Shown here: positions 3,009 through 6,971 of the stretch, piece after piece | Layout of the letters: every line of letters begins with the position of its first letter | How positions within the stretch are numbered: the stretch's first letter is position 1 | From: Minisyncoccota bacterium | Lineage (GTDB): Bacteria > Patescibacteriota > Minisyncoccia > Minisyncoccales > RBG-13-42-11 | Length of the DNA stretch: 64,000 nt | Direction: 5' to 3' | Assembly (NCBI GenBank): GCA_041653495.1 | Contig: JBAZFF010000001.1 | Coordinates: 4,987 to 68,986, forward strand | The notes under the pieces: model-generated | The model's input: only the letters and a program-made list of their open reading frames with translations | What the model was told of the DNA's origin: nothing | Databases searched by the model: none | Program-made: the position numbers and the translations under genes

Positions 3009-3587
3009 TTATTTTTCTTCAAACTTAGTTTCGTTTGGGAATAACAGCTGGTAGGGATAGCCTACGTAGTTTATCTCTATCTTCCCGCATCCCAGGTTTT
3101 TGAGGAAAGCTATCATCTCATCTGTTATTTTCTTTGGGTCTGCGTTCTGATCTTTGCCTATGTATTCTATCTCTACAAAATCCCCTAAGTTCTTTACAAA
3201 ATCCAAATCTATCTCGTAATCCTTATAAGTCCAGGTTTTCCTCAATTTATCTACGACTGCCAGGGATTTGAAATCCAGAACCTTTAATATTTTTTCGATC
3301 TGGTCTATGTCTTCAACTTTAGTCTCGTATTCGTCGCAAAAGCCGCTGCTCTTTCCGTTCTCGTCGTAATGCCAGTTCTTGTAGTTTATCAATCCCCTGT
3401 CCCCTTCTCTCCTTAACCTGAGCCACTCTTTCACTGGCCTCTCTTTTATAAAATCCTTATGACTAGGGGTAAAGTATTCATCCACCTGGTGCTTTTCTTT
3501 TTTAAACTCCGCTTCTTTCTCCAAGAATGCTATCAAAGGCTTATTATTCCCTATTTTAACTTGTATTTCTATTTCTTTGTCGTTCAT
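3009..3587 (-). CDS. CYTH-domain protein (class IV adenylate cyclase / triphosphate tunnel metalloenzyme)
   Basis: EIEIQVKI N-terminal ExExK motif, LRLRREGD, TWTYK, EIDLDFVKNLGDFVEIE. Overlaps the next gene by 4 nt. Confidence 0.6.
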   Translation of the reverse strand: MNDKEIEIQVKIGNNKPLIAFLEKEAEFKKEKHQVDEYFTPSHKDFIKERPVKEWLRLRREGDRGLINYKNWHYDENGKSSGFCDEYETKVEDIDQIEKILKVLDFKSLAVVDKLRKTWTYKDYEIDLDFVKNLGDFVEIEYIGKDQNADPKKITDEMIAFLKNLGCGKIEINYVGYPYQLLFPNETKFEEK

Positions 3588-3994
3588 TTTGAATATTTAA
3601 GGCTTTTAGTTAAAGTTTCCTTGAGCCAATCCGGAAATTCTTTTCCTTCGAGTATTTCTTCTTTAGTAAACCATTGGCTGCGGATATGTTCGCGGCTCAA
3701 AACAACCTCTGGTTTTTTCTTTAGGATGCATAAAAAATCAATCCCTCTGGATTTGTTTTTCCCCTCGTGGATCCATTCTTTCACGGGAAATGTGTCGCAA
3801 GAAGAAACGTCTATCCCAGCCTCTTCTTTAATCTCTCTAATCAGGACTTCCCTCTCTGTCTCTTCTGGTTTAGGGCCTCCTCCTGGGAGATCCCATTCTG
3901 AGGGGCGGATGTTGTCGTCCGGGCTTCTCAATAATAAAAGGTTTTTGTTTTCAAATAAAAGCAGGGCTTTGGCTGCGCTGAATAATTCATTCAT
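3584..3994 (-). CDS. NUDIX hydrolase
   Basis: Nudix box GGGPKPEETEREVLIREIKEEAGID (GX5EX7REUXEEXGU). Confidence 0.8.
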   Translation of the reverse strand: MNELFSAAKALLLFENKNLLLLRSPDDNIRPSEWDLPGGGPKPEETEREVLIREIKEEAGIDVSSCDTFPVKEWIHEGKNKSRGIDFLCILKKKPEVVLSREHIRSQWFTKEEILEGKEFPDWLKETLTKSLKYSK

Positions 3995-4553
3995 TTTTGT
4001 TATTCTTTAATAAGATATCCAATAACAACATTGTGGCCTTGTATTGATTCCTTACTAACTTCCTTGCTTCCGGAAGGCTTATTTTGCTGGCCCAGTCTTT
4101 CTTTAGCTTTTCATGCGTCCATTCCAGCATCGTATTGAAATCGTACCCCTGCTTAGTCCTCCAATAAAAGAATACTGGAAGGGCGTCAAGATGAGCCATC
4201 GCGTCAGCGTTGGCCACGATCTTGGCGGTCATTGTCTTTGGTTTAGGTCCTTTGCTGGTCCTGTGGGTCAGGACGCAATGCTTCACTTCTTCTATGGTCT
4301 CTCTGGGATAATTCAGCTTTTTCAATATTGATTCCGCCCTTGCGACGCCTACAATATGGTGCTCCTGATCTTTCTTTATGCCCACTCTACCTATGTCGTG
4401 CAATAAGGCGGCTAATTCGGTGATTTCCCGGTTTGTCTTGTATATCCTAGACAGCTTATTCGCGTATTGGACAACCAAAGAGACGTGGTTCTTCCAATCA
4501 ACCTCGTCAAACTGACTTTTTACTAATTTTCTGACTTTTTCTAATTTGGTCAT
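3987..4553 (-). CDS. HD-domain phosphohydrolase
   Basis: H…HD metal-binding motif (HVSLVVQYANKL … LHDIGR). 188 aa. Confidence 0.65.
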   Translation of the reverse strand: MTKLEKVRKLVKSQFDEVDWKNHVSLVVQYANKLSRIYKTNREITELAALLHDIGRVGIKKDQEHHIVGVARAESILKKLNYPRETIEEVKHCVLTHRTSKGPKPKTMTAKIVANADAMAHLDALPVFFYWRTKQGYDFNTMLEWTHEKLKKDWASKISLPEARKLVRNQYKATMLLLDILLKNNKNE

Positions 4554-5125
4554 TTCTTAACTGTTTTATCAAGCGTTAATATCTTATAATCAAGTTCGTT
4601 TATTCCGCTTAATTGATAAACCTGGAAAGTGGAGAATATCTTTTTGTCTTTTTGGTCCAGATTAAGTAATTCTATACCTTCGTCCACTTCTTCCCAAGTA
4701 GGAGCTTCTATCTCCAAATAAGGATTGAGCAAGGGCCAGAAATCTATATCAAACTCAATATTCCTCAGCTTATAGCGTATTCTCCTGTTCTCTTCGTAAA
4801 ACTTCTCTATCATACCAAGTTTCAAGACTAATTCTGCGGTCTTATCAAAATCGCTTACGTTTACCTCTATTTCTTCCATCCCTTCGTCGTTAGCCTTGCC
4901 ATCATGTCCTTTCATTCCTAATCTCTGCTTGAAGGTAAAAGTAATCTTATCTCCTTCGTCCCTCAAACGCAGATAAGCTCCTTTTTCGTTCAATCTTAAA
5001 TCCGGATAGTCATACACCCTTCTCTTATAGATCTTATCGAAGATCTTTTCGGCCCCGATCTCTTTTAACCTGTTTTCTGTCTTTACGGGATCTATATTTA
5101 AGAATTTTACTTCGTTCTCCTGCAT
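4550..5125 (-). CDS. CYTH-domain protein, second paralog
   Basis: ENEVKFLNID, YLRLRDEGDKITFTFKQR, EIEVNV, IEFDIDFWP. Same fold signature as 3009..3587. Confidence 0.55.
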   Translation of the reverse strand: MQENEVKFLNIDPVKTENRLKEIGAEKIFDKIYKRRVYDYPDLRLNEKGAYLRLRDEGDKITFTFKQRLGMKGHDGKANDEGMEEIEVNVSDFDKTAELVLKLGMIEKFYEENRRIRYKLRNIEFDIDFWPLLNPYLEIEAPTWEEVDEGIELLNLDQKDKKIFSTFQVYQLSGINELDYKILTLDKTVKK

Positions 5126-5424
5126 TATTCTTTAAATAATTTTTCTTCTTCTTTAATGATTCTTGAAACTATTTTCTCGACATCCAAGCCGTGAAGATTG
5201 GCTAGCATGACTAGCTGAATAAATATATCCCCTATGGCATTTTCAACTTCCTTCTCATCGTATTTGCCTCTTCCCGTTCCCTTATTAACGTATTGCCTGG
5301 AAAGCTCTCCAATCTCCTCTATTAGATGATTGAATGTCTTTTGAATATCCGGAGTGTTTTTTCTTTTTTTATCCCACTTAGAAAGAAACTCAATTATTTT
5401 ACTTTGGAATTCTTTCACTGTCAT
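5125..5424 (-). CDS. MazG-like nucleoside triphosphate pyrophosphohydrolase
   Basis: EEIGELSRQ … AIGDIFIQLVMLANLHGLD, the all-alpha NTP-PPase signature. The track ORF extends to 5493; the internal start MTVKEFQ at 5424 avoids a 44-nt overlap with the SET gene. Confidence 0.55.
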   Translation of the reverse strand: MTVKEFQSKIIEFLSKWDKKRKNTPDIQKTFNHLIEEIGELSRQYVNKGTGRGKYDEKEVENAIGDIFIQLVMLANLHGLDVEKIVSRIIKEEEKLFKE

Positions 5425-5449
5425 GTTTCTATTATAATTAATAAATAAA

Positions 5450-5839
5450 TTACTTTGAATAATATTCTTTCTTAGATTCTTCCGGTTCTTCAAGCGTATT
5501 ATAATCTATAATTATTTCTTCCCCCGCTTTAATATCTCTCAGAGCGTAATAGTTATAGTCCTTGTGATAAGCATTCGGATCCTTGGAGTGATTTATATAC
5601 CAACCGACCTCCATGTGCCCAAAATCTTTAGGACACAACAACATATCTCCCCTATCCACACAATATTCTTGGAAGAGCTCTGGAATATCCTTTCTCTCTC
5701 TTGATATAGATACCTCTACGTTTTCTTCGTTAAACAATCTGAGATATGTGTCTTTCTTAATATCGTGAACAGCAAAGACACCGACGCCGTATTTAGCGGG
5801 TTTTAGTATGAAAGAAAATTCTGTTGTTCTATTTTCCAT
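5450..5839 (-). CDS. SET-domain protein (putative lysine methyltransferase)
   Basis: GVGVFA (GxG), WYINHSKDPNA (NHSxxPN) and EEIIIDY (ELxFDY-like) in a 129-aa protein. Confidence 0.65.
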   Translation of the reverse strand: MENRTTEFSFILKPAKYGVGVFAVHDIKKDTYLRLFNEENVEVSISRERKDIPELFQEYCVDRGDMLLCPKDFGHMEVGWYINHSKDPNAYHKDYNYYALRDIKAGEEIIIDYNTLEEPEESKKEYYSK

Positions 5840-6971
5840 ATTGTTGCTTTAAGTATTTCTTCCCCTTTAACTTCTCCGGCAGATAATCTTCTTTGGAATA
5901 ATCTTCATATCCCTTCCCGTAGTTCAACTGTTCCATAAGCTTGGTTTCTGCATTCCTTAGTCTTAAGGGAATGGGAAGGTTCCCGTAAGTCTTTACGTCT
6001 TTCATAGCCGACATAAGGCCGGCGTATGCGCTTCTGTTCTTCTTGCATTGGCACAAATAAGCCACTCCGTGAGCTAAGTTAATGGCGCATTCAGGCAATC
6101 CTATGATCTCAACCGATCTGAATACTTCGTTTGCCACCACCAAGGCCGTGGGCACGGCCAATCCTATGTCTTCTGAAGCAAAGATCACCATTCTCCTGGC
6201 AATGAACTTTGGATCTTCCCCGGAATCTATCATCCTGGCTAAATAATATAAGGCTGCATTAGGCTGACTGGCCCTCATGCTCTTAATGAAGGCTGATATG
6301 GTATTATAGTGCTCTTCCCCTACTTTATCGTATCTTAAGAACTTTGACTGCAGGGTATTGGTTAAGTTCTTTACATTAATAGTCTTATAAAGCTGGCTCG
6401 TATTCTCAAGCATGGTAATAGCCTGCCTTGCGTCTCCATTAGCCATATTAATGAGCCAGTCTGTAGACTTCTTGTCTATCTTTAACTTGGTCCTCTTTAT
6501 TATGGTTTCCATGTCTTTGTCTGAAAGCTCGTTTAAGACAAAAACTCTGCATCTGGATAATAAGGGAGCTATCACTTCAAAGCTGGGATTCTCCGTAGTG
6601 GCTCCGATCAGGGTCAATTCCCCTCTTTCTACGTAAGGAAGAAGGAAATCCTGCTGAGCTTTGTTGAATCTGTGTATTTCATCTAAGAACAAAACCTTGG
6701 GATATCCTTTCGTATCTTCTTCTATTATCCTCTTAATATCAGCTTTTCCGGCTGATACCGCAGATAATTCATAGAGTTTGGCGTCCAAGCTCTTAGCGTA
6801 TATCTTGGCCAGAGTTGTTTTTCCGGTTCCCGGAGGACCCCAGAAGATAAACGAAAAGAGATGCTTTTTCTTTATAGCAACGTTCAAAGGCTTTCCTTCC
6901 CCTACCAAATGTTCCTGGCCTACGAAGTCTTTTAGTGTCTCTGGCCTTATTTTTGAGGCTAATGGCTCCAT
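5829..6971 (-). CDS. rarA: Replication-associated recombination protein A (RarA/MgsA AAA+ ATPase)
   Basis: WGPPGTGKTTLA Walker A, LFLDEIHRFNKAQQD, GATTENP, and a C-terminal MgsA-like helical domain. Confidence 0.85.
   Translation of the reverse strand: MEPLASKIRPETLKDFVGQEHLVGEGKPLNVAIKKKHLFSFIFWGPPGTGKTTLAKIYAKSLDAKLYELSAVSAGKADIKRIIEEDTKGYPKVLFLDEIHRFNKAQQDFLLPYVERGELTLIGATTENPSFEVIAPLLSRCRVFVLNELSDKDMETIIKRTKLKIDKKSTDWLINMANGDARQAITMLENTSQLYKTINVKNLTNTLQSKFLRYDKVGEEHYNTISAFIKSMRASQPNAALYYLARMIDSGEDPKFIARRMVIFASEDIGLAVPTALVVANEVFRSVEIIGLPECAINLAHGVAYLCQCKKNRSAYAGLMSAMKDVKTYGNLPIPLRLRNAETKLMEQLNYGKGYEDYSKEDYLPEKLKGKKYLKQQYGK

Follow-up and report, generated by a model that had tools for sequence, protein, structure and literature searches.

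Why should a run of small hydrolases, all from families that act on triphosphates, lie end to end behind rarA in a bacterial chromosome? The question is raised by seven minus-strand genes at positions 3009-6971 of the stretch of DNA shown above, which at its full length of 64,000 nt is called the window here. In model bacteria the genes for house-cleaning nucleoside triphosphate (NTP) pyrophosphatases are usually scattered; unlike those, the genes of the present string form one overlapping run that includes two CYTH genes. We consider it fairly probable that the string is a lineage-specific, probably co-transcribed set of independent house-cleaning enzymes for nucleotides and triphosphates, in a streamlined chromosome of the Paceibacteria (Candidate Phyla Radiation, CPR). 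A CPR chromosome as the source follows from the relatives of the RarA protein (70-88% identity to proteins in 80 genome loci, labelled mostly Nealsonbacteria, Parcubacteria, Paceibacterota or Patescibacteria) and from the housekeeping content of the rest of the window, which includes Hsp70/DnaJ/GrpE, CTP synthase, TGT, Obg and BipA.

All seven open reading frames (ORFs) were confirmed, each scoring above its Pfam gathering cut-off. From the first to the last of the string they are:

5829-6971, minus strand: rarA/mgsA, 380 amino acids (aa), first of the string (Pfam MgsA_C, 165 bits, 1.4e-48; also AAA_assoc_2 and AAA)
5450-5839, minus strand: SET, 129 aa (Pfam SET, 50.7 bits, cut-off 22.4, 2.6e-13)
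5125-5424 with an ATG start, or 5125-5493 with a TTG start, minus strand: MazG (Pfam MazG, 27.5 bits, cut-off 22)
4550-5125, minus strand: CYTH1, a hydrolase of the triphosphate tunnel metalloenzyme (TTM) type, 191 aa (Pfam CYTH, 48 bits, 1.4e-12)
3987-4553, minus strand: HD188, a YpgQ/YedJ-like HD protein of 188 aa (Pfam HD, 51 bits, 2.2e-13)
3584-3994, minus strand: Nudix, MutT-like, 136 aa (Pfam NUDIX, 51 bits, cut-off 21, 1.5e-13)
3009-3587, minus strand: CYTH2, TTM-type hydrolase, 192 aa, last of the string (Pfam CYTH, 75 bits, 7e-21)

A first-pass annotation, made from the sequence alone, had listed the same seven minus-strand ORFs and domains with overlaps of 1-11 nt, and both coordinates and Pfam scores confirm it. 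Its 'five different folds' are four folds in five genes.

The composition of the string is what calls for an explanation. Five of the six genes after rarA belong to the CYTH, NUDIX, HD or MazG families. Each of these families has at most one member among the other 51 ORFs of the window, and phmmer found no paralogue of any string hydrolase elsewhere in the window. Even with four undetected singletons conceded, ie 5/6 against at most 4/51, the one-sided Fisher probability is 1.7e-4. Single-sequence phmmer searches of related loci, 1.24 Mb in all, gave only about 15 matches to these hydrolase families. Tight packing, on the other hand, is uninformative here, since 23 of the 49 same-strand neighbour pairs in the window are spaced by 10 nt or less and 11 overlap; gene overlap in such tightly packed genomes does not imply a shared machine.

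The hydrolase roles of the string enzymes were inferred from family membership, motifs and models. The PDB relatives of MazG are SSO3215, YpjD and 5ie9, a 'nucleotide pyrophosphohydrolase'. Its acidic motifs are EIGE at residue 60 and ENAIGD at residue 84; the second carries one or two extra residues compared to ExxD, and the pair was accepted as that of a MazG enzyme. By sequence, it is a small single-domain all-alpha NTP pyrophosphohydrolase like SSO3215/YpjD. The Nudix protein has a complete Nudix box (GGPKPEETEREVLIREIKEEAGI, residues 39-61) with the pattern Gx5Ex7REUxEExGU. Its nearest PDB and NCBIfam matches are MutT-type NTP pyrophosphatases, all below the equivalog cut-offs (29-39 bits for the best MutT models, against cut-offs of 98-148), so that it does not qualify as an orthologue of the 8-oxo-dGTPase MutT.

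HD188 belongs to a family with at least 268 proteins in the CPR. Across 37 homologues three metal ligands, H23, D53 and D117, never vary, and the fourth, H52, is conserved in at least 90%. The family profile matched 2pq7 (1e-12), 3djb, YedJ and YpgQ (5dqv, 2e-3) in the PDB, and the structural model (predicted local distance difference test score, pLDDT, 93) superposes on YpgQ with a template-modelling (TM) score of 0.77 and a root-mean-square deviation of 3.2-3.3 Å over about 190 residues. The mononuclear H...HD...D site in an all-helical fold is that of the YpgQ/YedJ group, and the ligands H29/H58/D59/D124 of YpgQ (PDB 5DQV) are spaced as H23/H52/D53/D117 are in HD188, although sequence identity is only about 20%. 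YpgQ of B. subtilis, a Mn-dependent pyrophosphohydrolase of ribo- and deoxyribo-NTPs, (d)NTPs, is the only characterised member of the group (PMC8177086); unlike YpgQ, the closest sequence relatives of HD188 (2pq7, 3djb and YedJ) are uncharacterised. HD188 is predicted to be a YpgQ/YedJ-like (d)NTP pyrophosphohydrolase. One homologue, P0327, which is 54% identical, is labelled Candidatus Nanoarchaeia (DPANN archaea) in NCBI; the label may come from a binning error, or the family may be shared by ultra-small bacteria and archaea.

Both CYTH proteins carry the CYTH/TTM motifs: ENEVK, YLRLR and LEIE in CYTH1, and EIEIQ(VK), WLRLR and VEIE in CYTH2. The DxY motif is present in CYTH2, while its alignment in CYTH1 is uncertain. 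The best PDB match of both is SaTTM (7ns8 for CYTH1; 9e-15 for CYTH2). The protein, Saci_0718, is a triphosphatase that forms no cyclic nucleotide (PMC8233210). The likeness to SaTTM consists of ExE and RxR in both CYTH proteins, DxY in CYTH2 and the absence of HF from both; SaTTM has Ala where both have an aromatic residue (W/Y). The CYTH2 subfamily comprises about 446 clusters (50% identity level) at E<=1e-10, and the best 150 matches (P0361-P0510) were examined, 119 of them full-length representatives. In these 119, E5, E7 and ExE are invariant or nearly so (ExE kept in 116-117). CYTH2 and its closest relatives differ from other single-domain TTM proteins in having ExExQ in place of ExExK; among the 119 representatives Q was found in 12 and K in 88.

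On TIGR00318, 'cyaB' or class IV adenylate cyclase, CYTH2 reaches 90 bits against a cut-off of 58; all other NCBIfam equivalog scores of the string enzymes fall below cut-off. A true class IV cyclase requires HFxxxxExExK and ExA, in which the second Glu of ExE is replaced by Ala (PMC8233210). HF is absent from both CYTH proteins, there being only 2-4 residues ahead of ExE, and ExE is retained in both, so the TIGR00318 match is a family label and not a function. Together with the SaTTM match this led us to reject CYTH2 as a class IV (CyaB) adenylate cyclase. None of the string enzymes can therefore be named as a specific orthologue, and the label 'class IV adenylate cyclase' on CYTH proteins should be regarded as unreliable.

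The aromatic residue of W/YxRxR stacks on the thiazole and is a signature of thiamine triphosphatases (CYTH cluster 8) (PMC8233210). It is W55 in CYTH2 and Y in CYTH1, and 111 of the 119 CYTH2-family representatives have it. No thiamine triphosphatase was among the PDB matches of either CYTH protein at E<=0.01. The literature assigns W/YxRxR also to plant TTM1/2. A link to ThiL was considered for the motif and dropped, the AIRS-family gene at 14921-16036 being PurM-like.

Beyond the string lies a second HD gene:

1055-2422, minus strand: HD455, 455 aa, SAMHD1/EF1143-type fold, a separate transcription unit adjoining the string

HD455 has no Pfam, NCBIfam or PADLOC match. Its model (pLDDT 93.8) was matched by Foldseek to EF1143 and SAMHD1 over the full length with E ~1e-8, whereas the sequence-profile match to SAMHD1/EF1143/Dgt alone was not significant (E 0.4-0.9). 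R151, H154, H186, D187, D252, Y256 and D260 are invariant, and the fold and H..HD..D metal site are those of the SAMHD1/EF1143/Dgt triphosphohydrolases of deoxy-NTPs (dNTPs). The R..H, HD and DKxxYxxxDC motifs of these enzymes are conserved in HD455, but identity is only about 14%, and HDxGHxPFSH is replaced by HD(L/I)ATPxGGD. The earlier suggestion of a 'dGTPase-like HD' gene beyond the spacer is supported at the level of the modelled fold. The family has at least 120 members, and those named by source are mostly of the Paceibacteria type. Its genes occur at unrelated housekeeping loci, beside ATP synthase, ParAB, GMP synthase and others. At four such loci there is no CYTH gene nearby, which led us to reject a general CYTH-HD455 pair, one producing and the other consuming inorganic triphosphate (PPPi), and to keep it as a local possibility only.

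On these assignments the five string enzymes would work independently as metal-dependent hydrolases of small molecules that bear a triphosphate. From aberrant (d)NTPs the small MazG and the MutT-like Nudix would release pyrophosphate (PPi), leaving (d)NMP, and HD188 would likewise act as a (d)NTP pyrophosphohydrolase. The reaction (d)NTP -> (d)NMP + PPi is the predicted chemistry shared with the house-cleaning NTP pyrophosphatases (MutT-type Nudix, MazG, Maf, YpgQ), and the same superfamilies are present here with intact catalytic motifs. CYTH1 and CYTH2 would hydrolyse triphosphates, either PPPi or, given the aromatic residue of W/YxRxR, an organic triphosphate. HD455, separately transcribed, would split dNTPs to deoxynucleoside and PPPi. 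Together they would keep the nucleotide pool of an organism presumably reliant on salvaged nucleotides clean and in balance. They are not subunits of one machine, and the set has been put together and rearranged one gene at a time. It is generally reported that CPR bacteria have no de novo nucleotide synthesis and depend on nucleotides that they scavenge; getting rid of damaged or surplus (d)NTPs should therefore be of greater importance to them than to free-living bacteria. Among the search results listed there was no paper on a CYTH/Nudix/MazG/HD operon, and the compact run provides a ready set of candidates for biochemistry.

Three non-coding features bear on transcription:

6989-7007, minus strand: terminator-like hairpin between rarA and the upstream TrlF/restriction operon
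2535-3008, minus strand: non-coding stretch of about 470 nt between the CYTH2 stop and the next hairpin
2510-2528, minus strand: terminator-like hairpin with a T-run, AGGGTGATTATTTCACCCT TTTTTC, conserved in the closest relative (L123, below)

The two hairpins bracket the string, at 7007-6989 ahead of rarA and at 2528-2510, 480 nt past CYTH2, and on the minus strand from 6971 to 3009 no terminator-like hairpin was found. Five junctions overlap, by 4, 8, 4, 1 and 11 nt, the last being SET over the rarA stop. At the MazG/SET junction there is either a 44-nt overlap, with the TTG start at 5493, or a 25-nt gap, with the ATG at 5424; the ATG, which yields 99 aa and not the 122 of the TTG, is the start chosen by public gene calls on identical contigs. 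Shine-Dalgarno-like sequences were found only at rarA, whose ATG is preceded by AAGG, and at the HD455 gene; the internal genes have none. The uninterrupted strand, the overlaps and the bare internal starts make one transcript with coupled translation plausible, in keeping with the first-pass annotation. Its most likely limits are rarA at the start and the hairpin 2528-2510 at the end, the seven genes probably being co-transcribed, with 2535-3008 as what is probably a long 3' untranslated tail.

The 586-nt spacer before HD455 had been called a '585-nt leader'. It holds instead the terminator-like hairpin of the string as well as the promoter-like site (2496-2467) and Shine-Dalgarno sequence (AAGGAGGG) of HD455 itself, and this EF1143/SAMHD1/Dgt-like gene is outside the operon. 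The spacer has no repeat elsewhere in the window. In 2535-3008 there is no long ORF in any frame and no Rfam match at E<=1, and the z-score of the minimum free energy of folding is only -2.45; a non-coding RNA in the spacer was rejected on these grounds. The 2535-3008 stretch is missing in L123, where, within about 18 nt of CYTH2, sequence 88.6% identical to window 2423-2534 (the HD455 promoter region) begins.

Closer relatives than the 80 genomes were reached through metagenomes via CYTH1 and SET. The exact RarA protein of the window is not on record in the encoding-contig index; the SET protein is, at 100% identity, on contigs that are short fragments of the same block. CYTH1 was found at 39 metagenome loci (41-100% identity), directly after rarA in 8 contigs, and orthologues of CYTH2 in L123 (88%), L002 (68%) and L084 (58%). 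Only three or four close relatives have informative flanks, and their neighbour genes were mostly detected by phmmer or BLAST, not by profile annotation. The gene orders are:

Window (RarA 100%): rarA, SET, MazG, CYTH1, HD, Nudix, CYTH2, terminator, HD455
L123 (RarA 96%): rarA, 154-aa protein, alpha/beta-hydrolase, Nudix, Nudix, SET, CYTH1, GDSL lipase, HD, GNAT, GNAT, CYTH2
L081 (RarA 95%): rarA, Mrr nuclease, Nudix, PRA-PH-like, CYTH1
L084 (RarA 85%): rarA, CYTH1, NYN, third CYTH, Nudix, CYTH2
L088 (RarA not on the locus): CYTH1, HD455, further genes, then HD and Xer on the opposite strand
L002 (RarA 87%): rarA, response regulator, HAD, 335-aa protein, CYTH2 overlapped by Maf, Nudix

A conserved seven-gene operon was rejected, the block being absent at rarA in 80/80 species genomes. 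As to the conservation of the exact gene order in relatives, which the first-pass annotation had asked to be checked, none of the 80 genomes has it, and the order SET, CYTH1, HD, CYTH2 is kept in L123 at 80-90% identity. Between the window and L123 the ratio of nonsynonymous to synonymous substitution (dN/dS) is 0.03 for RarA, 0.09 for SET, 0.04 for CYTH1 and 0.04 for CYTH2; dS is saturated for HD and Nudix. The genes shared with L123 are under strong purifying selection. SET, CYTH1, HD and CYTH2 form a backbone that is vertically inherited in the closest lineage, while other small genes come and go. MazG looks like a recent arrival, since it is absent from L123 and has a GC content at third codon positions (GC3) of 0.33.

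The other boundary of this variable region is marked by a recombinase gene:

59-943, plus strand: XerC/D-like tyrosine recombinase (Pfam Phage_integrase, 1.7e-36; best NCBIfam models XerD and XerC), convergent with the string

RarA is 70-96% identical in more than 80 Paceibacteria loci. In L005, L011 and L015 rarA and the convergent XerC/D-like gene lie 2-3 kb apart with other content between them, and in L088 Xer is near CYTH1/HD455. The string sits in a variable slot between these two conserved anchors. Further afield, a distant CYTH1 clade (about 50% identity) has the run TraG/type IV secretion coupling-protein-like, CYTH1, NDK, CYTH, HD, beta-CASP RNase (L094:3-5775, also L096, L102, L104 and L112), and altogether CYTH genes of Paceibacteria recur beside NDK, Maf, Nudix, PRA-PH/MazG-like and HD genes. 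Nucleotide-pool sanitation, one of the two roles first proposed for the cluster, gains from this recurrence, from the selection on the shared genes and from the fact that, in the family of every hydrolase, the members with a characterised activity cleave (d)NTPs or triphosphates.

In four loci (L083, L084, L085 and L086, from different samples) the CYTH1 orthologue contains an in-frame TGA, seen at L083:1691-1693 in the gene right after rarA, at the conserved Trp of DIDFWPLL. The frame is otherwise intact and conserved up to the normal stop; read-through, recoding or a recent nonsense mutation could explain the TGA.

The two remaining genes, rarA and SET, had been described as unexpected partners of the hydrolases, a view that the comparison does not bear out. 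RarA has Walker A (GPPGTGKT), Walker B (VLFLDE), an AAA+ module and MgsA_C, the features of RarA/MgsA, and is by sequence the core AAA+ replication-associated ATPase, a conserved positional anchor. The SET motifs are intact (GVG, for GxG, at 18, NHS at 83, EEIIIDY at 107), and the gene product is a minimal SET-domain protein, a putative S-adenosylmethionine-dependent lysine methyltransferase; its PDB similarity, to vSET and an H3K36 methyltransferase, is weak. It belongs to a family of proteins of about 130 aa with 245 homologues, and among the 120 listed, identity is 61-100% and nearly all those with a source name are Parcubacteria or Patescibacteria group. Elsewhere SET lies between IleRS and RecO, with an overlap of 4 nt with recO; at other loci it is flanked by a GNAT on one side and by an unrelated HD plus PPDK on the other, is surrounded by APH, GNAT and methyltransferase genes (L124), or is near RRM and DUF5701 genes. 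Since SET occurs in such unrelated contexts, and rarA is without the block in 80/80 genomes, both are neighbours of the string by position and not functional partners. The SET homologue loci are L124, L127, L129 and L131. In the last, from Wildermuthbacteria, SET adjoins an HD gene, which was rejected as a parallel, that HD not being detectably related to HD188. Among the search results listed, no paper joins 'SET domain' with Parcubacteria, Patescibacteria or CPR.

Several observations weigh against a house-cleaning string. In none of the 80 genomes with RarA at 70-88% identity does the block follow rarA by tblastn or phmmer. In L123 a GDSL lipase, two GNATs and an alpha/beta-hydrolase stand between the shared genes, so that the slot also takes enzymes with no link to nucleotides. 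Elsewhere HD188, SET and HD455 have homologues among unrelated genes, nuclease genes have been inserted in the slot of relatives (Mrr in L081, NYN in L084), and MazG and SET share their low GC3 with the adjacent defence island. The sequences of small MazG, Nudix, HD and CYTH enzymes do not in themselves reveal their substrates, and the background rate of the families rests on the 64 kb window plus 1.24 Mb of loci chosen around rarA.

Much of this would also be expected if the slot between rarA and xer were a dumping ground for small single-domain enzymes and the run of hydrolases a chance state with no shared role. Close spacing is the genome norm, as the 23/49 pairs show, the L123 slot has its lipase, GNATs and alpha/beta-hydrolase, SET overlaps the unrelated recO in other Parcubacteria, and homologues are found in company such as cupins, a nitroreductase and a CDGSH protein (HD188 in L138) or the APH, GNAT and methyltransferase genes around SET in L124. 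We nevertheless regard incidental packing as unlikely. The enrichment of 5/6 against at most 4/51 and the scarcity of matches in 1.24 Mb argue against it, as do the four independent arrangements in which CYTH lies beside NDK, Maf, Nudix, MazG-like or HD genes, and all five enzymes together with the SAMHD1-like neighbour appear, from their motifs and models, to converge on triphosphate substrates. The first-pass annotation had held that the clustering would look incidental if the genes mapped to separate loci in related genomes. In other lineages they do so, each conserved on its own, but the hydrolase theme recurs independently.

A more specific proposal is that the CYTH subfamily is an unrecognised prokaryotic group within an undescribed triphosphate-turnover circuit of Paceibacteria, which would include the YpgQ-like, Nudix, MazG and SAMHD1-like enzymes, with the rarA-xer slot as a dedicated, fluid 'small-enzyme' locus. 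The CYTH substrate would then be an organic triphosphate and not PPPi alone; thiamine triphosphate or a damaged or modified NTP may be a candidate. We hold this to be a rather doubtful extension of house-cleaning by independent enzymes.

The first-pass annotation had offered, as its other role for the cluster, a nucleotide-depletion defence island, in which the hydrolases and the SAMHD1-like enzyme would drain (d)NTPs on infection and abort phage replication. The neighbourhood invites such an explanation:

7118-14057, minus strand: defence operon directly upstream of rarA
16195-17250: Fic-domain protein
18343-19098 and 19095-19724: AbiEii/AbiEi type IV toxin-antitoxin pair, overlapping by 4 nt

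The upstream operon encodes a TrlF-family PHP/ABC-type ATPase (991 aa; NF045780, 579 bits) related to anti-phage Ppl, a ResIII/type III restriction-like helicase (743 aa) and an N6/N4 DNA methylase (574 aa), and the Fic/AbiE genes lie where the GC content of the window is lowest (0.325 at 18-20 kb). The string abuts this island, enzymes of the dGTPase/SAMHD1 type are known defence proteins, and the low GC3 of MazG and SET, the inserted Mrr and NYN nucleases and the variable membership of the slot could all be read in the same way. One point against defence is the behaviour of the two flanks of rarA. At the position of the upstream defence genes L123 has Dcm methylase, HATPase_c_3, a 455-aa protein and NOV_C; the upstream flank therefore looks like a defence-island hot spot, its genes in L123 being wholly different from those of the window, while the array is kept at 80-90% identity with dN/dS of 0.03-0.09 and does not behave as the swappable cargo of such islands. 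PADLOC has no family for CYTH1, CYTH2, MazG, SET or HD455, and gave only a weak candidate-family match for Nudix and generic Cas3-HD matches for HD188. No close relatives were found in IMG/VR viral contigs scanned with MazG, SET, CYTH2 and HD188, nothing in GenBank phages by tblastn with the MazG protein, and no GenBank phage or plasmid match by blastn with the CYTH2-to-SET DNA (3009-5839); with all these searches empty, a phage or plasmid origin of the string was rejected. HD455 homologues stand beside the housekeeping genes given above, and the string has no sensor or regulator gene beside the hydrolases. We consider a defence role very unlikely, and lying next to a defence island is not enough to give a gene a role in defence.

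Turnover of second messengers or alarmones, with CYTH2 as a class IV adenylate cyclase and HD, Nudix and MazG degrading cAMP, (p)ppGpp or Ap4A-type signals, is very improbable: the TIGR00318 score of CYTH2, a weak resemblance of Nudix to Ap4A hydrolases and the fact that some MazG, Nudix and HD family members hydrolyse alarmones are outweighed by the missing HF and retained ExE of both CYTH proteins, contrary to the cyclase signature (PMC8233210), by SaTTM, their nearest solved relative, which makes no cyclic nucleotide, by the mononuclear H..HD..D phosphatase set of HD188, which fits YpgQ and not a phosphodiesterase-type HD or HD-GYP, and by the absence of a cyclic-nucleotide receptor or alarmone synthetase from the string.

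An integron also comes to mind, since small single-domain enzyme genes (Nudix, GNAT and others) form a variable series in one direction near a tyrosine recombinase. The recombinase here is, in contrast, XerC/D-like and convergent, not divergent, the backbone genes are vertically inherited, and the overlaps of 1-11 nt between string genes leave no room for attC sites, unlike in an integron; an integron-like cassette array was rejected. Elsewhere in the window, one ORF within 14428-63917 matches the AEP-like primase family PF24387 (1e-28), which could point to a mobile element or to an unusual primase.

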